Source: Escherichia phage VerenaGrendelmeier_Bas101
DNA: 64,000 nt
Strand: one strand, 5' to 3'
Sequence record: PQ850631.1
A model generated the notes under the pieces. The model was not told where the DNA came from. It was given only the letters and a program-made list of their open reading frames with translations, and ran no database searches. This document shows, one piece after another, positions 1 to 62,027 of the stretch. The number at the start of each line of letters is the position of its first letter. Within the stretch, counting starts at the first letter, position 1. Made by a program: the position numbers and the translations under genes.

Positions 1-1428
1 ATGTACCAGTTGAATCCTGCTTTAAAAGAAGTCTGGAAGACAAAAGCGCGATACAAAGTAATATACGGCGGTCGTGCATCTTCCAAATCGCATGATGCCG
101 CTGGTTTTGCTATTTATTTGGCGGCAAACTTCAAATTAAAATTTCTTTGCGTGCGACAATTCCAGAACAAGATTTCTGAATCTGTATATACTCTATTAAA
201 AGACAAAATAGAGATTTCTGATTTCAAAGATGAGTTCAATTTATTAAAGAACTCTATTGAACATAAAAGAACTAAATCTGAATTTCTATTTTACGGTATC
301 GCACGTAACGTTGATGAAATCAAATCAACGGAAGGTGTTGACGTCCTTTGGTTGGAAGAAGCGCACGCGCTTACTGAAGAACAGTGGGACATTATTGAGC
401 CGACAATCCGTAAAGAAGGGTCCGAAATATGGATCATCTTTAACCCTGATGAAGAGGCTGATTTCGTCTACCAAAACTTTGTTATGCGACCGCCGAAGAA
501 TGCCATTGTTAAAAAGATAAACTGGCAAGACAATCCATTTTTGTCGCAAACAATGCTGGACGTTATTGCAGGCATGTACGAGCGTGACCCGAAAAAGGCA
601 GAGCACGTTTATGGCGGCGTGCCGAAGACTGGCGGCGACAAATCTGTAATCAACCGCGCATTCGTTAAGGCCGCTCTTAATCTCCACAAACACCCTACGC
701 TGGGATGGAGTTTGTCAGGGTCTAACCGTATAGGCTTTGACGTAGCGGACGATGGCGACGACCTTAACGCCACTGCATTCGTCACAGGAAACGTATTGCG
801 CGGCATCAAGACTTGGGAAGGTCTGGAAGATGAATTGTTGAAATCGGCAAGCGGAGTTTGGAAAGATGCGCTTACATTTGGCGCTTCTATAACTTATGAC
901 GCCATCGGTGTCGGCGCTTTTGCTGGTTCAAAATTTGATGAACTAAACGAGTATGCAATACATGAAAATCCATCATTTCCAAGAATCGAATTTAATGCGT
1001 TCAACGCGCAAGGGTCTGTTGATGATCCTGATGACGTTTTTCTTGAGCTACCACACGTTGAAATACTCAATAAAGACCATTTCGCAAACATAAAAGCGCA
1101 AAAGTGGACTGAAATTGCAGAGAGATTCAGAAAGACATACGAATATGCAACTGGGCAAGCCGTATATCCGACTGATGAATTGATTTCAATCGACACCGAT
1201 GGTATACCGGAACTTGGGATTCCAGCTTGGACTACTGAAGAGATTGAGACGTTTCTTTTTGAGATGTCAGCGCCGCGCAAAGATACGTCTGTTCTTGGCA
1301 AGTTCAAAGTTGAATCCAAAAAGGATATGGCAAAGCGTGGAGTCAAATCACCTAACAAAGCGGACGCAGCAATCATGGCATTGATGAAACCAATTGTTGC
1401 AGCATCCGGCTTCTTCTCTAACCTTTAA
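1..1428 (+). CDS. terminase large subunit
   Basis: 475-aa ORF starting at window base 1; N-terminal P-loop-like KVIYGGRASSKSHD; directly upstream of portal-like gene. Confidence 0.7.
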   Translation: MYQLNPALKEVWKTKARYKVIYGGRASSKSHDAAGFAIYLAANFKLKFLCVRQFQNKISESVYTLLKDKIEISDFKDEFNLLKNSIEHKRTKSEFLFYGIARNVDEIKSTEGVDVLWLEEAHALTEEQWDIIEPTIRKEGSEIWIIFNPDEEADFVYQNFVMRPPKNAIVKKINWQDNPFLSQTMLDVIAGMYERDPKKAEHVYGGVPKTGGDKSVINRAFVKAALNLHKHPTLGWSLSGSNRIGFDVADDGDDLNATAFVTGNVLRGIKTWEGLEDELLKSASGVWKDALTFGASITYDAIGVGAFAGSKFDELNEYAIHENPSFPRIEFNAFNAQGSVDDPDDVFLELPHVEILNKDHFANIKAQKWTEIAERFRKTYEYATGQAVYPTDELISIDTDGIPELGIPAWTTEEIETFLFEMSAPRKDTSVLGKFKVESKKDMAKRGVKSPNKADAAIMALMKPIVAASGFFSNL

Positions 1429-2246: not shown

Positions 2247-4622
2247 ATGAAAATTCTTGGCATAAAACTCTGGGAGAAGACGCAACCAGAAGCCGAACCA
2301 GCGGAGATGCCGCCAGGCGACCCATTGGCACCGTTTGAACGCCTGGAAAGGCGCGGCAGCGGCCAACGCTGGGATAAGACCGAAAGCAACCGCCCGACCT
2401 TTAAAACCGTTGATGACTTTCCTTTATATGAGCCTGATATCAACGGGGACGGTGTTGCAATCATTAAAGGTCGCTCAGTAGATTCAGCAACCGTATCCAA
2501 AAAAGTTATGGATAATGCCTTAAAGAACATAAGTTCAGAAGGGCAGGTGAATCCATACACAGTCCCTATTCAGTTGCAAAACTGGTACTTATCGCAATCA
2601 TTTATCGGATATCAAGCTTGCGCCATCATCGCGCAGCACTGGCTAGTGAACAAGGCTTGTTCCATGGTAGGCCGCGATGCGGTCCGTAAAGGCTGGGAAG
2701 TCAAATCCAGCTCTGAGTCGGAATTGTCAGTACAGGCAAGCGAACGCCTAAAGCAAATTGATAAAGAATTTAATATCAAAGAGCACTTAGTTGAAGCCGA
2801 ACGATTCAAGAATATTTTTGGCATCCGCGTCATCATATTTGATGTGCGCAGTGATGACCCAGAATATTATAGCAAACCTTTTAACATCGATGGCGTGACA
2901 AAGGGGTCTTATAAGGGAATCATTCAGGTTGACCCTTATTGGATGATGCCATTCTTGACATCTGAAAACACTGCAGACCCTGCATCACAGCATTTTTATG
3001 ATCCAGAATATTGGGTGATCAGCGGACAACGTTATCACCGCAGCCACCTCATAATCTTGCGCAACGATGAGCCAGCTGATATTCTCAAGCCGACTTATAT
3101 CTATGGCGGCATTCCTTTGACTCAGCAGATTTATGAACGTATCTATGCCGCTGAACGTACCGCTAACGAAGCTCCATTGCTGGCGATGTCTAAGCGTACA
3201 ACCACGCTGCGGACCGACGTTGACAAGGCGATTGCCAATGAGCGGTCGTTTGCCGAACGTTTGATGATGTGGATTAAGTACCGCGACAACTATGCGGTAA
3301 AAGTACTTGGTCAGAAAGAAGAGATGGACCAGTTTGACATCAACTTGTCAGACTTCGACAGCATCATCATGAACCAGTACCAGCTGGTGGCCGCAATCGC
3401 AAAAGTTCCGTCGACAAAACTGTTAGGGACGTCACCTAAAGGCTTTAACGCCACTGGTGAGTTCGAAATGGTCAGCTATCACGAAGAATTGGAGACTTGT
3501 CAGCAGCACGATTTGACGAAGATTCTTGACCGTCACTACAAAATCCTTTTGAAATCTGAAGGTGTTGAAGTCGACGTTAAAGTGGCATGGGAGCCAGTTG
3601 GTTCACTTACTGCTACTCAACTTGCAGAGATTAACGACAAACGAGCGAATACTGGTAAGACTCTCATTGATGCTGGCGTCATCTCCCCTGATGAAGAGCG
3701 CGACCGCATCAAAGACGACAAAAACAGCGGCTACAACCGTTTGCCAGAAGATACAGCAGAAGAAACCCCAGGGATGTCTCCAGAGAATATGGCATTGCTT
3801 GGCAAGTCCGCTGGTGAAGTTCTGCAAGGTAAGGCCGATATTGAACAGGCTAAGGCTGATGTTGTCAAGATGGGCGGCCAGTTCTATAGCGAGACTGGTA
3901 TCATGCCGGAAGGTGCCGCGCGCGGTGAGTTGGCAGAAAACCCTGACAGGGCACCAGTTGAGATTAACATGGATGATACCGATGACGAATCAAGCCATCA
4001 CGTTGATGTTCTAACGCAACTTAAAGAGGGTCTGGAGGGTATTGCTGACTATTACCTTAAAGAAGGTCAGGACGTGGATTTTGACCCTCAAAAAGATGCA
4101 AGGTCGGTGCAACCGTCTACGCTTCCAAGCGTAAAAGGAAATGTCGTAAACTTGCGACACAATGTAGGGAAGATGGATGCCGCATCGCTGCCTAAGATGA
4201 AGTTGCACGGGATGATTCTTGGTATTGAGAATCCTCGCAACAGCATTCGCAGGGGTAACAGTCTTGATGGTGAATGGGCAGTTAAGATGCCGCACCATTA
4301 CGGATTCATCAAAGGAACCAAGGGTGCTGATGGTGATGAAGTCGACTGCTTTGTTGGACCAAATATGAAGTCGCCTAAAGTATTCATCATTAACCAAAAT
4401 GATAATTATTCTGGCGAATTTGATGAACACAAGTGTATGCTTGGATTCGATTCAGCAGAAGAAGCGAAAGAAGCTTATCAGGCATCATTTGGTAACGGTT
4501 GGAATGGATTCGACTCAATCCACGAATTGGATGTAGACTCATTCAAGGAGTGGTTGAAGGGTGATTGCTCTCAAGCATATGGAGCACTCAATAATCCTAC
4601 TAATTCACCGAAGCAAGGTTGA
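2247..4622 (+). CDS. portal-like protein with C-terminal inorganic-pyrophosphatase-like domain
   Basis: large ORF after terminase; start moved to ATG 2247 behind AGGTGG RBS; C-terminal HHYGFIKGT..DGDEVDCFV and AEEAKEAYQASF resemble family I PPase. Confidence 0.55.
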   Translation: MKILGIKLWEKTQPEAEPAEMPPGDPLAPFERLERRGSGQRWDKTESNRPTFKTVDDFPLYEPDINGDGVAIIKGRSVDSATVSKKVMDNALKNISSEGQVNPYTVPIQLQNWYLSQSFIGYQACAIIAQHWLVNKACSMVGRDAVRKGWEVKSSSESELSVQASERLKQIDKEFNIKEHLVEAERFKNIFGIRVIIFDVRSDDPEYYSKPFNIDGVTKGSYKGIIQVDPYWMMPFLTSENTADPASQHFYDPEYWVISGQRYHRSHLIILRNDEPADILKPTYIYGGIPLTQQIYERIYAAERTANEAPLLAMSKRTTTLRTDVDKAIANERSFAERLMMWIKYRDNYAVKVLGQKEEMDQFDINLSDFDSIIMNQYQLVAAIAKVPSTKLLGTSPKGFNATGEFEMVSYHEELETCQQHDLTKILDRHYKILLKSEGVEVDVKVAWEPVGSLTATQLAEINDKRANTGKTLIDAGVISPDEERDRIKDDKNSGYNRLPEDTAEETPGMSPENMALLGKSAGEVLQGKADIEQAKADVVKMGGQFYSETGIMPEGAARGELAENPDRAPVEINMDDTDDESSHHVDVLTQLKEGLEGIADYYLKEGQDVDFDPQKDARSVQPSTLPSVKGNVVNLRHNVGKMDAASLPKMKLHGMILGIENPRNSIRRGNSLDGEWAVKMPHHYGFIKGTKGADGDEVDCFVGPNMKSPKVFIINQNDNYSGEFDEHKCMLGFDSAEEAKEAYQASFGNGWNGFDSIHELDVDSFKEWLKGDCSQAYGALNNPTNSPKQG

Positions 4623-4623
4623 T

Positions 4624-5475
4624 ATGGCTTTTAAAGCTTCGAAAAAACGTGAACGCCGCTCACCCGATAGAATCGGGCGCGGCAGTCCGATAATCCCATC
4701 CAACGCTATTGCGATGGCCTATCGTCGTGAGATGAAAGGTCTTTGCTATGCGATGATTGACGACTATCAAGCAGGAATTGCTGAGTGGCTTGAAAAGAAG
4801 CAGGTGAAAAAGTTCTTTGCGCAAGACTCTGCTGATTCAACTTTTCAGACCTTGATGAAGCGCCTTCAACTGAAATGGGCAAAAGCATTCGCCCGTGTTG
4901 GGTCAAAGATTGCTGCAGATTTCATCAAGTCAGTTGAAAAGGGTGCGACTTCTGCTACATTCGCAAGTCTTAAATCTGCAGGAATAGAAGCGCCAAAAGC
5001 CACATATAATAAATTCGTTGAGAACACTCTTAAAACAAGCGAGACGTTCAACACGACTCTAGTGACTAAGGTTGGCGAGGATATTCACAACAGGGTGTAC
5101 GAAGCGGTGATGCTTTCGCTGACTTCGCCAGACCCAGCGCAGCAAGGCACATCCGGCATTCAGGCGGCACTAAGGAATGTAAAACAATTCTCTGCAAAAC
5201 GCGTAGACCTTATCGCCAAAGACCAAACGAGCAAACTTTATTGCGTATTAAGTGATGAAAGGATGCGACAGAATGGCGTTGAGGAATTTGAGTGGGCGCA
5301 TTCAGGAGCAGGCAAAGAGCCGCGAATATCACATGAGCACGTCGACGGCATGAGATTCAAGCTTGATGACAAACGCTTATGGGAAGTAGGTGGAGAACTT
5401 AAGTTCAAAAAGGGTGACATCGGTCCTCCTGGATGGGCAATACACTGCAAGTGCAGAAAAATACCAATTATCTGA
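4624..5475 (+). CDS. head morphogenesis protein (MuF / SPP1 gp7-like)
   Basis: follows portal; start taken at ATG 4624 just after portal stop; family assignment from position and C-terminal region, not searched. Confidence 0.5.
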   Translation: MAFKASKKRERRSPDRIGRGSPIIPSNAIAMAYRREMKGLCYAMIDDYQAGIAEWLEKKQVKKFFAQDSADSTFQTLMKRLQLKWAKAFARVGSKIAADFIKSVEKGATSATFASLKSAGIEAPKATYNKFVENTLKTSETFNTTLVTKVGEDIHNRVYEAVMLSLTSPDPAQQGTSGIQAALRNVKQFSAKRVDLIAKDQTSKLYCVLSDERMRQNGVEEFEWAHSGAGKEPRISHEHVDGMRFKLDDKRLWEVGGELKFKKGDIGPPGWAIHCKCRKIPII

Positions 5476-6413: not shown

Positions 6414-6551
6414 ATGCAAAAGATTATTCAGTCACGTTATGTTAAAGTGCGAAATATTAATTGCAACTCTTTGCTTTCTTGGAAATGGGCTGTTTATGAC
6501 TCGATGTTGATTGGCGTTTTAGTGGCAGGAGTGCTATTTAATATTCACTGA
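6414..6551 (+). CDS. small putative membrane peptide (45 aa)
   Basis: AGAGGAAG RBS then ATG 6414; hydrophobic stretch MLIGVLVAGVLF; not in ORF track (under 60 aa). Confidence 0.3.
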   Translation: MQKIIQSRYVKVRNINCNSLLSWKWAVYDSMLIGVLVAGVLFNIH

Positions 6552-27871: not shown

Positions 27872-28516
27872 ATGATTAATGCAAACGTGATATCTAAAGG
27901 GACCGGATGCAGCATGGATGTCGCAGAGAAATGGGTGGACCCTTTCAAGCAGGCTTGTGAGCACTACGGAATCAAAAGCAAGAACGCCATCGCGGCGTTG
28001 CTTGCAAACGTAGGAGTGGAAACAGGCAGTCTGAAGACATTTGTGGAAAACTTGAATTATTCCGCTCAAGGTCTTGCTAATACATGGCCTAGCCGTTACA
28101 GCGCCAGCGGTCGTTTCGGCGGTGCACCCAACTCCTTGGCATTGTCGATTGCCCGTAAACCAATGGAAATCGCCAATAATACATATGCAAACCGCATGGG
28201 CAACGGTTCGGTAGCATCGGGAGACGGTTGGAAGTACCGTGGCCGTGGTGCCATTCAGCTGACTGGAAAGGATAACTATGCAGATTATTCAAAGCAATCA
28301 GGCTATGACGCATTGAACAATCCTGATATTCTGACTGAACCAAAATACATCGCTGACAGCGCGGCATGGTTCTTTAAGAATAGCGGCTGTATTCCTCTTG
28401 CCGATGCGGGTGCATTTGATTCGACTGTTAAGCGGATTAACGGGGCCGCGCCGAATACGGCTAACCATGGGGATTTGCGACGGAAGCGTTACAAGGATGC
28501 ACTAGCAGTTATGTAA
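27872..28516 (+). CDS. endolysin (GH19 / predicted-chitinase-like)
   Basis: 214 aa; AIAALLANVGVETGSLKTFVENLNYS and GAIQLTGKDNY motifs typical of this lysin family; last gene of late operon. Confidence 0.6.
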   Translation: MINANVISKGTGCSMDVAEKWVDPFKQACEHYGIKSKNAIAALLANVGVETGSLKTFVENLNYSAQGLANTWPSRYSASGRFGGAPNSLALSIARKPMEIANNTYANRMGNGSVASGDGWKYRGRGAIQLTGKDNYADYSKQSGYDALNNPDILTEPKYIADSAAWFFKNSGCIPLADAGAFDSTVKRINGAAPNTANHGDLRRKRYKDALAVM

Positions 28517-28548
28517 GAAAAAGGCCCATATGGGCCTTTGTTTATTTT
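28512..28548. terminator. bidirectional rho-independent terminator
   Basis: AGGCCCA / TGGGCCT stem 28522-28537 flanked by an A-run upstream and T-run downstream; between convergent endolysin and minus-strand genes. Confidence 0.65.
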
Positions 28549-28772
28549 ACGGCTTCAACCTGGACGGGCGGCGCGGAGCTTGTATCAATGTCTGGCAAGT
28601 CGAAGTAATACCCCGCCATGCCAATCACGCCAACAATCGCGGCCCGTGCCACCTTGTTGCTAATTGACTCCCCAATAAGCTTTACCAACAGGGACAAGAT
28701 TTGAGACGTCAAAGCCTTTTTCAGCCTTTTGTTTTCTTCCAAATCTTTCTGCATAACTACCACCCATGTCAA
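28542..28772 (-). CDS. small single-pass membrane protein (holin-like candidate)
   Basis: 76 aa, one hydrophobic helix AAIVGVIGMAGYYF; start overlaps upstream gene stop. Confidence 0.4.
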   Translation of the reverse strand: MTWVVVMQKDLEENKRLKKALTSQILSLLVKLIGESISNKVARAAIVGVIGMAGYYFDLPDIDTSSAPPVQVEAVK

Positions 28773-29311
28773 CGCACATCCTGTGTCTTAACATTACCTG
28801 AAGCATCTCTTAAGGGCAGTGGATAGTAGGCCATTTGGTAGTCTGATACGCCTTCAACATGATAAAACACGATTACGTCTTTGCTGTTGATGAGCATGTT
28901 AACGACATCTGATTTATCTTCTGGAGTAAGTATGAGTGCGCCGCCTGTCCTGCTGTCTACTGCAACAGGGTATGTCTTGTCGACAAGGCCGCTGTCCAAT
29001 GTATTATACCTGACAACGATTTCAGGGGCATCAACTTTTGCAATTGACATTCCGAACACAAACGACACGACTTGGCGACCGCGATCATTCATTACGCACA
29101 TCTTTTCCTTGTCAAACCTTTCCTTTATCACATCGTATTTGTTCCAGCAAAATTCGAACGATTGGCCGTTGTTAAAATATCGAGTTAATACTTTTGCATT
29201 GCTGTTTGGCGGCGTAAACATACTTTCAGCCGCAGCACTTTTGGTGAAGAACAAAACTGTCAGCATAGCCATGATGATGATCAAAACAATCTTTAAATTT
29301 TTTGATTTCAT
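28769..29311 (-). CDS. secreted or membrane-anchored protein
   Basis: 180 aa; N-terminal signal-like KIVLIIIMAMLTVLFFTKSAAAES; AAGGTG RBS. Confidence 0.45.
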   Translation of the reverse strand: MKSKNLKIVLIIIMAMLTVLFFTKSAAAESMFTPPNSNAKVLTRYFNNGQSFEFCWNKYDVIKERFDKEKMCVMNDRGRQVVSFVFGMSIAKVDAPEIVVRYNTLDSGLVDKTYPVAVDSRTGGALILTPEDKSDVVNMLINSKDVIVFYHVEGVSDYQMAYYPLPLRDASGNVKTQDVR

Positions 29312-29342
29312 TATAATTCACCTTTTGATTACGAATATTAAT

Positions 29343-29370
29343 AGTATAGGCCGAAGGTTTTGAAAGTAAA
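29343..29370 (-). promoter_or_regulatory. sigma70-like promoter (TTTACT-16-TATACT) for 28769..29311 cassette
   Basis: minus-strand reading: TTTACT (plus 29365-29370), 16-bp spacer, TATACT (plus 29343-29348). Confidence 0.45.
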
Positions 29371-29382
29371 TAAGGCGAAAGG

Positions 29383-29413
29383 TAAATAAAAGAAAAGCCG
29401 GAGATTTCCGGCT
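29383..29413 (-). terminator. rho-independent terminator downstream of ligase operon
   Basis: AGCCGGA / TCCGGCT stem with 4-nt loop; U-run on minus strand. Confidence 0.55.
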
Positions 29414-29487
29414 TTATGTATACACTGCAGATTTAATTCTATAAAACGGCGCGATAGATTATCCGCACCAATTATTTATCCAGTGTC

Positions 29488-30465: not shown

Positions 30466-31055
30466 TCAAACTCCTTATTCATCACTTGTTCCAGCGCATA
30501 GGCGTAAGCCTGATCAGTCGATTTGATGAATGTGCCGTTGTACATGACACCTTTTCGGTCTTTAATGTCTTCGTAGGCCGCTTGCGCACAGTCGGATAAG
30601 CGAAGGCCATAATCATGAGCTACGCCGGAAAGGTAATCGGATGCGGCCATGATGGTCACGTCAATATCCATGGTCTGATTCTTAGCGATTGCATCACCAA
30701 GTCGTCCAAGGGTCTTTGCCAGGCGAAGGATAAATGAATGAGGGTGAGCACCTTTATCAGCGCAACCGCCGCCATTAATGTTTTCGATTTCAGTACCGTT
30801 TTGCGCTGCCAGGATGGTCAACACAACAAGGCAATCGCCGATGTCGTCCTTAATTGCTGCCTGCAAGTCACAGATGGCTTGCTCTGTATATCCAATTTCA
30901 GGGTCGAAGAACACAAGGTCATGGAGTTGATCAACGTGGTCGGTTAACTCCCCGAACTCGCTGATAAGCTTCGGGTATTGGTCCTTAAGGTCGCAACCTT
31001 GGATGATGTTACGGTCAGAAGCCCACTGGCGAATGTTTGCATAAATCTGTTTCAT
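30462..31055 (-). CDS. MazG-like nucleoside triphosphate pyrophosphohydrolase
   Basis: 197 aa; ISEFGELTDHV and DDIGDCLVVLTILA resemble MazG-type motifs. Confidence 0.45.
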   Translation of the reverse strand: MKQIYANIRQWASDRNIIQGCDLKDQYPKLISEFGELTDHVDQLHDLVFFDPEIGYTEQAICDLQAAIKDDIGDCLVVLTILAAQNGTEIENINGGGCADKGAHPHSFILRLAKTLGRLGDAIAKNQTMDIDVTIMAASDYLSGVAHDYGLRLSDCAQAAYEDIKDRKGVMYNGTFIKSTDQAYAYALEQVMNKEFE

Positions 31056-31570
31056 TTATTTTCCTTTGATGCATTGAATTGATCGATTTTTATTTTAGCC
31101 TGATTATAAGTATCAATCAAGCTATTAACTTTCTCTTTTAATCGATTTGTTTCTGCGGCGAACTGAACAAGAAAACTGACATCTTCTTCTGATAGTCCAC
31201 AGTTTCCTTCTGGGATAGAGAGGCGTCCAGTGGTCGCAGAGTCGGGCATACTCCTGAGTAACTCACGGGAGCAGCTGAGTTGCGCGCGCAACTTGATATT
31301 CCCAGACTTGTAACGAGCAATAGTGTCATCAGCAACCAGTTGCGCTTCCTGGCGACCCTTCTCATATGCCGATGCCGATTCAACCTGTAAAGATGCAATT
31401 TGCTCTTCGAGTGCATTTATCTTGTCCTTACGCTCATTAAGCGATGTCAGATATTGATTATCCTTGACCAGTGATGCGTTGGTTTGCTGCAGGTCTTCAA
31501 CGTATGATCCAGCGGCAAACGCGCCAACAAGGGCCAGAATCTTCAGGAGCGGTACAATTCTTTCTATCAT
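31052..31570 (-). CDS. i-spanin (Rz-like)
   Basis: 172 aa; N-terminal TM helix IVPLLKILALVGAFAAGSYV then long coiled-coil-like region; contains embedded +1-frame lipoprotein ORF. Confidence 0.45.
   Translation of the reverse strand: MIERIVPLLKILALVGAFAAGSYVEDLQQTNASLVKDNQYLTSLNERKDKINALEEQIASLQVESASAYEKGRQEAQLVADDTIARYKSGNIKLRAQLSCSRELLRSMPDSATTGRLSIPEGNCGLSEEDVSFLVQFAAETNRLKEKVNSLIDTYNQAKIKIDQFNASKENK
31138..31365 (-). CDS. o-spanin (Rz1-like), embedded in i-spanin gene
   Basis: alternative-frame ORF with lipoprotein signal and lipobox LLMTLLLVTSLGISSC, then short Pro-containing mature part; start codon uncertain. Confidence 0.35.
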   Translation of the reverse strand: MRRVARKRNWLLMTLLLVTSLGISSCARNSAAPVSYSGVCPTLRPLDASLSQKETVDYQKKMSVFLFSSPQKQID

Positions 31571-41947: not shown

Positions 41948-42394
41948 TTAACGGTAATTCACTAGTTGCTGATCACCAGAGAAGGTGCAATGATAAACGA
42001 ATTGTGCGTTATAAAGCAACTGAAAACTTTTCTTTGGTTCATTATTAGAACTCATTGATGTAAAGATTTCTGCACCAGAACGGTTTTCACCAATCAGGTT
42101 AATAAAGCCGCCAGTTGAACGAGGCTGAACGAAAGTGAAACGCTGCATCCACGGAGTCCGGTTGGCACCTTTTCCGGTGAATCCCTGAATCTGAATATTC
42201 AGACCTTCTTGCTCGTTCACACCGATGTAAGTGGTAATTGTTGCGCCAGTCGTCGCTGCGGTCTTGCCGTCCATCGCTTCGCAATCGTAAACAGCGATTG
42301 AATCGGAAGTACGGACAGCGGCTTCAGTCGCTTCCATATACATGGTTCCGAGAATAGCAGTCGCGGCAAGCGCGATTCCAGTGATGCGTTTCAT
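41948..42394 (-). CDS. secreted protein
   Basis: 148 aa; signal-peptide-like N-terminus MKRITGIALAATAILG; AGAGGA RBS; own promoter. Confidence 0.45.
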   Translation of the reverse strand: MKRITGIALAATAILGTMYMEATEAAVRTSDSIAVYDCEAMDGKTAATTGATITTYIGVNEQEGLNIQIQGFTGKGANRTPWMQRFTFVQPRSTGGFINLIGENRSGAEIFTSMSSNNEPKKSFQLLYNAQFVYHCTFSGDQQLVNYR

Positions 42395-42414
42395 TTTCGT
42401 TTCCTCTATGAGTT

Positions 42415-46203: not shown

Positions 46204-46231
46204 TTGACTTTGTATCACTCAATATTATACT
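46204..46231 (+). promoter_or_regulatory. sigma70-like promoter (TTGACT-16-TATACT) for plus-strand early operon
   Basis: -35 TTGACT 46204-46209, -10 TATACT 46226-46231, in divergent intergenic region. Confidence 0.5.
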
Positions 46232-61460: not shown

Positions 61461-61600
61461 AATAAACTCCTAGTTGGGAGAGGCGTTAACGACCTATTCG
61501 TTAACTCATCCCGTCCCGATATGAGTACATTATAATATAGTGTAGAAAAAAGTAAAGCACTTTTTCGATAAAAATGCGATAAATTATTTTATCTTTTTTC

Positions 61601-61628
61601 TTTACTTCTTCGTACACTCGCGTATACT
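61601..61628 (+). promoter_or_regulatory. sigma70-like promoter (TTTACT-16-TATACT)
   Basis: within direct repeat CTTTACTTCTTCGTACACT also found at 62003. Confidence 0.45.
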
Positions 61629-61998: not shown

Positions 61999-62027
61999 TT
62001 TACTTCTTCGTACACTAAGACTATAAT
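61999..62027 (+). promoter_or_regulatory. sigma70-like promoter (TTTACT-17-TATAAT)
   Basis: -35 61999-62004, -10 62022-62027; paralogous to promoter at 61601. Confidence 0.5.

Follow-up and report, generated by a model that had tools for sequence, protein, structure and literature searches.

The closest described relative of the locus analysed here is PA1-LRP of Pantoea phage PA1 (Kylevirus), an 8.5-kDa protein with a hydrophobic region at residues 40–60 whose gene adjoins the endolysin gene (PMC11538084). In Escherichia coli, PA1-LRP reduced growth, caused β-galactosidase leakage and led to ~25% cell death, and fusion of the endolysin to the whole protein or to its hydrophobic part alone gave killing of up to ~41%; a two-hybrid test detected no direct contact between PA1-LRP and the endolysin, and TMHMM returned a 'hydrophobic region' and no transmembrane domain (TMD) (PMC11538084). 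A second relative, gp48 (ORF47) of Pseudomonas phage 14-1, forms a monocistronic unit (TU021) by ONT-cappable-seq and was called possibly moron-like by its authors, being transcriptionally independent and of deviating G+C (Putzeys et al. 2024, PMC10914365). No holin was found in the genome paper of Serratia phage MTx (PMC6588376), and other genome papers nominate different genes as holin (PMC3008698, PMC9583000). Here we analyse a 64,000-nucleotide stretch of Escherichia phage VerenaGrendelmeier_Bas101 (PQ850631.1; the window), in which a minus-strand cassette of two genes, encoding a 180-aa secreted protein and a small protein of 70 aa, lies between the genes for endolysin and ATP-dependent DNA ligase. 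With a probability of roughly 0.4, we read this cassette as a lysis-associated module that combines a non-canonical holin-like or holin-assisting small protein with a modulating periplasmic partner.

The window phage is a Wifcevirus, a PB1-like E. coli myophage. The locus (1.3 kb) is matched, at 92.5–96.3% identity and at least 80% coverage, by 28 phage records, all of them Wifcevirus-type E. coli or Shigella myophages, including WFC, FEC19, ECML-117, Mansfield and BASEL Bas98–100; the pair occupies one fixed position in every one of these records, and both genes carry the label 'hypothetical protein' wherever the record is annotated. Along the minus strand (28542–29415) the order is terminator, sigma-70-like promoter, 180-aa gene and small gene, closed by a bidirectional terminator that also serves the endolysin gene (Table 1). 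An earlier note, made from the sequence alone, had described an insulated, independently promoted two-gene unit encoding a secreted protein and a membrane protein of 76 aa, and our analysis recovered both open reading frames (ORFs), the promoter and both terminators. Its account of the products stands for the first, a 180-aa protein with a cleavable signal peptide, and for the hydrophobic character of the second, whose length is most likely 70 aa and not 76: translation most likely starts at ATG 28754 rather than TTG 28772, because all public annotations use the ATG, which follows a GGGTGG ribosome-binding site. Purifying selection acts on both genes, with ratios of nonsynonymous to synonymous substitution rates (dN/dS) of 0–0.13 overall and 0–0.08 for the small gene.

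PA1-LRP is an ortholog of the 70-aa protein, as the corresponding 73-aa ORF (L003 3550–3771) agrees with the published primers and size. The two proteins are ~40% identical and share the same core motif, both genes converge on a gene for a GH19 endolysin, and in PA1, too, a homolog of the 180-aa protein lies immediately upstream. The PA1 paper, however, passes over the secreted partner, the spread across PB1-like genera and the insulation by promoter and terminators; the Wifcevirus version, for its part, lacks the Arg-rich N terminus, and Wifcevirus also lacks PA1-LVP, a protein with three hydrophobic segments that is present in PA1. The 14-1 protein is likewise a homolog of the small protein, encoded in a stand-alone transcription unit between the ligase gene and the endolysin terminator, but that unit holds the small gene only and the 180-aa protein is absent. 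Wide conservation of the small gene argues, on sequence comparison, that it is a core gene rather than the moron-like element suggested for gp48. The small protein is thus a new member of a family that was described only in 2024 and was not recognized as pan-PB1-like, and the secreted partner and the two-gene architecture were undescribed before.

Conservation of the pair extends far beyond Wifcevirus, and the presence in related genomes that the earlier note had proposed to check was found across genera. By sequence, the 180-aa protein occurs in Wifcevirus (91–100% identical within the genus), Kylevirus and a handful of metagenomic relatives, and tblastn places the small gene in Wifcevirus, the Pantoea phages Kyle and PA1 and ~289 Pseudomonas Pbunavirus genomes (Kyle, 5e-10; Pbunavirus, ~4e-5). 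Synteny of the pair reaches Kylevirus, Myosmarvirus and unclassified relatives, down to 17–21% identity, and the order ligase, terminator and promoter, secreted protein, small protein, bidirectional terminator and oppositely oriented endolysin gene is common to Wifcevirus, Kylevirus, the relatives L013–L016 and the Myosmarvirus MTx. In MTx, a 169-aa uncharacterized protein was the best match of a structural search against viral models; its gene is syntenic with the 180-aa gene and followed by a small-protein homolog, and hhalign gives a 94.5% probability of homology. The pair is probably present in the Xanthomonas Carpasinavirus as well, where Carpasina encodes a 253-aa protein at the same place, again followed by a small-protein homolog; this link consists of synteny and a weak structural match, with no sequence-level relation to the 180-aa protein. 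The Carpasina homolog of the small protein (L018 ~4430–4677) is entirely unannotated, an apparent annotation error. In Pbunavirus, where it likewise belongs to the core genes, the small gene stands alone at the same position, with a 280-bp gap where the 180-aa gene would be.

Word-indexed homolog searches and an exhaustive profile search showed both families to be very small and restricted to phages. The 180-aa family gave 6 matches among 1.84 billion representatives, one of which (E 3.9e-4, a repeat protein) was taken as spurious, and a profile search with the small protein recovered only PB1-like phage proteins. A search of 5,426 complete E. coli genomes found no copy of the cassette, which therefore does not circulate in prophages. 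Because it is fixed at one locus across genera, down to very low identity, the cassette is an old, vertically inherited module in its ancestral position and not cargo.

In every case the small and endolysin genes converge, including where the type of endolysin has been swapped. Close relatives carry unrelated endolysins beside the pair, either a GH19 enzyme like that of the window, a lysozyme-like protein of 150 aa or GH108 with PG_binding_3; the exchange, with neighbours staying in place, is seen at L014 5803–6255, L015 5861–6505 and L016 5849–6400, the equivalents of the endolysin gene in the window. Holins are not specific to one endolysin type, and retention of the pair while the endolysin is exchanged therefore fits a holin-type role.

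The small protein matches phrog_5165 (E 1.9e-8) and shows what characterizes the phrog_5165/PA1-LRP family, namely the profile match, the conserved core and the position convergent on the endolysin gene. Homologs share a layout of a basic N-side, an amphipathic helix, a GExVKDKxxR-type loop, a 14-residue apolar segment and a tail that is acidic, Pro-rich and variable in length. The loop is the most conserved part, with G28, E29 and R37 invariant across homologs; the apolar run, rich in Gly, Ala and Ser and ending in aromatic YY(F/Y), has a constant 14 residues in homologs and 16 in MTx. An Arg-rich N terminus is present in the Kyle, PA1 and 14-1 homologs and absent in those of Wifcevirus, L013 and L014. 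The earlier note had assigned this protein one transmembrane helix. A hydrophobic segment is indeed there, but it consists of 14 uncharged residues between R37 and D52, with a Kyte–Doolittle mean over 19 residues of 1.34 against a cut-off of 1.6, and so lies under the usual transmembrane thresholds. Every homolog shows an asymmetric charge, +2 to +9 on the N-side and −1 to −4 on the C-side, a pattern that fits, without proving, an N-in/C-out membrane protein whose helix is unusually short. In size and adjacency the protein resembles a holin, at 70 aa and with 25 bp between its stop codon and that of the endolysin gene, around the shared terminator.

The signal-peptide-like N terminus that the earlier note had seen in the 180-aa protein proved to be a classical n-h-c signal peptide: residues 1–28 (29311–29228) comprise MKSKNLK, with three basic residues, then 15 hydrophobic residues and a cleavage site AAA/E. 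A comparable small-residue motif of the AXA type is retained in most homologs, and two cysteines (C55 and C72) are conserved. The mature part, ~152 aa, is β-rich, and an AlphaFold2 (AF2) model built from 8 sequences, with a predicted local distance difference test score (pLDDT) of 83, shows a β-sandwich plus one helix; with 5 sequences pLDDT was 48 and the model unusable. Signal peptide, conserved cysteines and confident β-rich model together support a periplasmic location. Conserved polar motifs, RYNTxDxGxxDxxY and PEDxxD, suggest a candidate binding surface. In the structure search that the earlier note had proposed, the model moderately matched periplasmic β-sandwich folds, those of IalB (PDB 3dtd) and of a sodium-driven flagellar-motor component (PDB 8z5n chain A) that is probably MotY; identity is 3–8%, and what these proteins do offers no direct clue. 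The only Foldseek matches in the PDB, TEAD and Kir, were non-significant and were rejected. The 180-aa protein has no named relatives: scans against Pfam, NCBIfam, PADLOC and PHROGs returned only one sub-threshold PHROG match (E 0.032), with no Pfam match to PF06776 (IalB). Sequence searches of the PDB with the profiles of both proteins gave no meaningful match, which means that neither protein forms part of the solved Pbunavirus virions. We also considered the 180-aa protein as a spanin and ruled this out, given the lack of a lipobox cysteine after the signal peptide, the β-rich model and the true Rz/Rz1 pair encoded elsewhere in the window.

Independent transcription of the pair is predicted from the signals around it. 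Taken alone, a 9/12 promoter match is not significant in an AT-rich stretch such as this (8 sites observed versus 5.6 expected). The promoter, whose two hexamers and 16-nt spacer the earlier note had located, is credible because the hexamers are invariant, the −10 is kept in distant relatives and the pattern is over-represented in the window. Specifically, TTTACT and TATACT are unchanged across seven Wifceviruses while the spacer varies; the −10 persists as TATAMT in L014–L016, PA1 and Kyle, whose proteins are only 33–63% identical; and the 64-kb window holds 4 copies of the pattern TTTAC-N-N15-18-TAKAMT, with 0.43 expected and 4 reached in 0 of 100 shuffles. The other three exact matches stand at operon starts, before small genes, at 61.5–62.0 kb. 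These near-identical sigma-70-like promoters (TTTACTTCTTCGTACACT...TATAMT) lie at 61529–61556 (−), 61601–61628 (+) and 61999–62027 (+), two of them back to back, and a TTGACT...TATACT variant (46204–46231, +) precedes the primase gene, where two operons diverge. The family probably represents the host-RNA-polymerase (early) promoters of the phage.

The bracketing terminators of the earlier note were likewise confirmed as strong hairpins with T runs, independently annotated by others. The upstream terminator closes the transcription unit of ligase, MazG and spanin genes; its stem is invariant and its loop variable in seven Wifceviruses, its 3′ arm and T-tract persist in distant relatives, and it is annotated in Mansfield and WFC. 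The bidirectional terminator is invariant in the same seven phages, annotated on both strands in Mansfield and found at the same place in 14-1. Kyle KYLE_60 (L004 3762–3890, 42 aa) overlaps the conserved terminator and promoter region; it is probably not a gene and looks like an annotation error.

Table 1. Features of the cassette and of the neighbouring lysis genes, in window coordinates.
Feature	Position	Strand	Details
Weaker first hairpin, directly after ligase stop codon	29447–29470	−	8 pairs, then T run; −11 kcal/mol, z = −2.0; partly conserved
Intrinsic terminator, upstream insulator of cassette	29394–29415	−	9-bp stem, then TCTTTTATTT; −14.1 kcal/mol, z = −4.6
Sigma-70-like promoter	29343–29370	−	−35 TTTACT 29370–29365, 16-nt spacer, −10 TATACT 29348–29343
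180-aa secreted protein gene	28769–29311	−	Ribosome-binding site AAGGTG at 29324–29319
70-aa small protein gene, phrog_5165	28542–28754	−	Ribosome-binding site GGGTGG at 28765–28760; alternative TTG start 28772
Bidirectional terminator, common to cassette (−) and tail-fibre/endolysin operon (+)	28520–28539	both	−13.2 and −14.9 kcal/mol on the two strands
GH19-type endolysin	27872–28516	+	phrog_181 endolysin, E 8.5e-70; no signal or signal-arrest-release (SAR) sequence
i-spanin, with o-spanin embedded at 31138–31416	31052–31570	−	phrog_1327 Rz-like spanin, E 4.6e-26; three genes upstream of cassette, same strand

The surroundings of the cassette bear on its function. Because the endolysin lacks a signal or SAR sequence, a membrane lesion would be needed for it to reach the wall. 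Searches of the Wifcevirus genome revealed no annotated holin, none recognizable by hidden Markov model and no DUF7940 homolog, and its other small membrane ORFs belong to no family. Two genes called holin in some Pbunavirus papers were considered and set aside. One, a 145-aa ORF close to the terminase gene, has an apparent positional counterpart in Wifcevirus that lacks hydrophobic character; the other, a 201-aa protein with three hydrophobic segments, is missing from Wifcevirus. The latter belongs to a slot upstream of the MazG gene that differs by genus (compared at window 31052–31570 (−), L005 1563–2168, L004 1512–2117, L016 2606–3211, L017 9826–10431 and L018 803–1730). In Wifcevirus, L014 and L015 the slot holds the Rz/Rz1 spanin pair; in Pbunavirus, Kylevirus, MTx and L016, the 201-aa protein (phrog_1544, equivalent to PA1-LVP and the old 'probable holin'); and in Carpasina, a multi-TMD coiled-coil protein and a lipoprotein, a spanin-like pair. 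No phrog_1544 homolog was found anywhere in Wifcevirus, and the variation suggests that lysis genes have been exchanged in place. From this slot to the endolysin gene, the genome thus resembles a dispersed lysis region, of which the small gene is the only universal small hydrophobic member.

According to the lysis-module reading, host RNA polymerase would start at the TTTACT/TATACT promoter and stop at the bidirectional terminator, giving a two-gene mRNA of which a one-gene version has been shown in 14-1. The 70-aa product would enter the inner membrane; the charge asymmetry suggests that its basic N-terminal half would stay in the cytoplasm and its acidic, Pro-rich tail emerge on the outer side. 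Its short, glycine-rich apolar helix of 14 residues would oligomerize and compromise the membrane, letting the signal-less, convergently encoded endolysin reach the wall. For this holin-like role we draw on the position of the gene and the published behaviour of PA1-LRP. The 180-aa product would be exported by Sec, cleaved at AAA/E and folded into a disulfide-bonded periplasmic β-sandwich, as its sequence and the AF2 model indicate. From the periplasm it may then partner the small protein, with the tuning of lysis timing as its most plausible role; this is the weakest step, argued solely from strict co-transcription and joint inheritance of the two genes across very large divergence. A works-like analogy, and no more, is provided by the T holin and RI antiholin of T4, a small N-in/C-out membrane protein near lysis genes co-expressed with a periplasm-exported protein. 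As with antiholins of the RI type, a conserved signal peptide and two conserved cysteines would equip the 180-aa protein for export. Unlike the T4 system, the small protein has a periplasmic tail of only 18–40 residues and a sub-threshold TMD, and its interaction with the 180-aa protein is conjecture.

The lysis-module reading is favoured by the fixed synteny, the lack of a recognizable Wifcevirus holin beside endolysin and Rz/Rz1, the PA1-LRP phenotype, the charge asymmetry and the monocistronic unit of 14-1. The earlier note had allowed that the small protein could simply be a displaced holin; a holin-type lysis protein does fit better, since the gene faces that of the endolysin and the PA1 ortholog is active, but nothing has been displaced from what is the ancestral position, and the protein departs in part from what is usual for holins. 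Several observations weigh against a holin-like role. With 14 apolar residues, a sub-threshold transmembrane segment and an acidic rather than basic tail, the small protein seems to depart from canonical holins of classes I–III, and scans of Pfam, NCBIfam, PADLOC and PHROGs gave no Pfam, NCBIfam or PHROG holin match, phrog_5165 being its only match. The charged loop (G28, E29, R37) is its most conserved part, which points to a specific partner and not to generic pore formation. Classical holin genes are late, and the promoter here looks like a host sigma-70-type promoter of the class that precedes small genes in the apparently early region. The 180-aa protein has no sequence or fold relation to known antiholins, and Pbunavirus manages without it. 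The metagenomic relative L013 has a recognizable holin, with two TMDs (DUF7940/phrog_1356, E 2.3e-17), directly after its GH19 endolysin (loci 1580–1786 (−) and 765–1318 (+)), yet still keeps the small gene. Finally, the PA1-LRP experiments are suggestive only, as they used 24-h overexpression and mostly translational fusions, without phage genetics (PMC11538084). A stronger version of the proposal, that the pair is a previously unrecognized lysis-control system of PB1-like phages, in which a new-fold periplasmic β-sandwich senses or regulates, from outside, a holin-type effector with an unusually short, glycine-rich helix and an invariant cytoplasmic loop, while Pbunavirus runs a one-gene version, is improbable as it stands. 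The L013 counterpart of the 180-aa protein appears as two ORFs, of 101 and 96 aa, through a frameshift or an assembly error; if not the latter, it may have become dispensable where a holin was gained.

A different function at the envelope would account for some of these observations. The secreted β-sandwich might bind a host periplasmic or cell-wall glycan or protein and remodel the envelope, with a separate membrane role for the small protein and an adjacency to endolysin that is merely historical. The conserved RYNTxDxGxxDxxY and PEDxxD motifs do seem to resemble a binding rather than a catalytic site, and the protein occurs in phages of Enterobacterales and possibly of Xanthomonas while being absent from Pseudomonas phages. 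With no sequence match to PF06776, and with co-transcription of the pair and its linkage to the endolysin terminator over such divergence left unexplained, we consider this account unlikely. We think still less of superinfection exclusion or envelope defence, the reading of the earlier note, which supposes that early, host-type expression yields a periplasmic protein and a small membrane anchor or partner that block DNA entry, tail lysin action or receptor access of incoming phages; the cassette may also protect progeny from adsorbing to debris. Such a role would agree with the cassette's own sigma-70-like promoter, of the class seen at 61.5–62.0 kb, with the predicted envelope targeting of both products and with the G+C of the 180-aa gene, 41.8% as against 46.1% for the window, and the 14-1 authors flagged gp48 as moron-like on similar grounds (PMC10914365). 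Defence cargo is nonetheless unsupported, given the fixed presence of the pair in all members, at one locus and across genera, the lack of similarity to any PADLOC (0 matches at E ≤ 1), Pfam or named PHROG exclusion or defence family, and the absence of the pair from the E. coli genomes searched. Wifcevirus tail fibres have highly variable receptor-binding domains (PMC11990801), which the 180-aa protein, near-constant within the genus, does not follow, and the phenotype of the small-protein ortholog is membrane damage and enhanced lysis (PMC11538084). Exclusion retains a small share of probability because the promoter looks host-readable and virulent phages can keep conserved exclusion genes, as T4 does.

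Least probable, in our estimation, is that the small protein never enters the membrane and is instead a cytoplasmic helical-hairpin regulator of a conserved phage or host partner, the toxicity of PA1-LRP being an overexpression artefact. Sub-threshold hydrophobicity, the invariant GE...R loop and the Arg-rich N termini of the Kyle, PA1 and 14-1 homologs are what such a regulator might show, and TMHMM-based annotation of Mansfield and MTx named no holin and left the gene hypothetical, in line with the missing TMD call for PA1-LRP. Against it stand the consistent positive-inside asymmetry, the belt of aromatic residues, YY(F/Y), that closes the apolar run, the lack of a conserved basic N terminus in Wifcevirus, L013 and L014, and the killing obtained when the hydrophobic part alone was fused to endolysin (PMC11538084).

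For PB1-like phages, in which no holin has been firmly identified, these comparisons single out one universal small gene facing the endolysin gene. It travels with a secreted partner in several genera, and the pair offers a concrete, cheap genetic test of lysis triggering. If the lysis-module reading is true, the family would broaden what counts as a holin-like protein, taking in proteins that escape standard transmembrane predictors, in a group that includes Pbunavirus, the main therapeutic phages of Pseudomonas aeruginosa.

Other small membrane or exported proteins of these phages came to light along the way. Within the head/tail block of the window, a 45-aa ORF (6414–6551, +), hypothetical in Bas100 and matching no family, has a C-terminal transmembrane segment. 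Beyond the window end, in the presumed early region of Bas100, lie genes for two proteins without a family match: one of 113 aa with a signal peptide and a C-terminal TMD (66820–67161 (−); L007 16820–17161), and one of 71 aa with two TMDs (67802–68017 (−); L007 17802–18017), which on these features is an alternative holin candidate. A 148-aa hypothetical protein of the replication block (L006 41961–42407 (−), ~41951–42397 of the window) has no Pfam or PHROG match; its N terminus resembles a signal peptide (MKRITGIALAATAILGTMYMEA...), and it may be a second exported protein.

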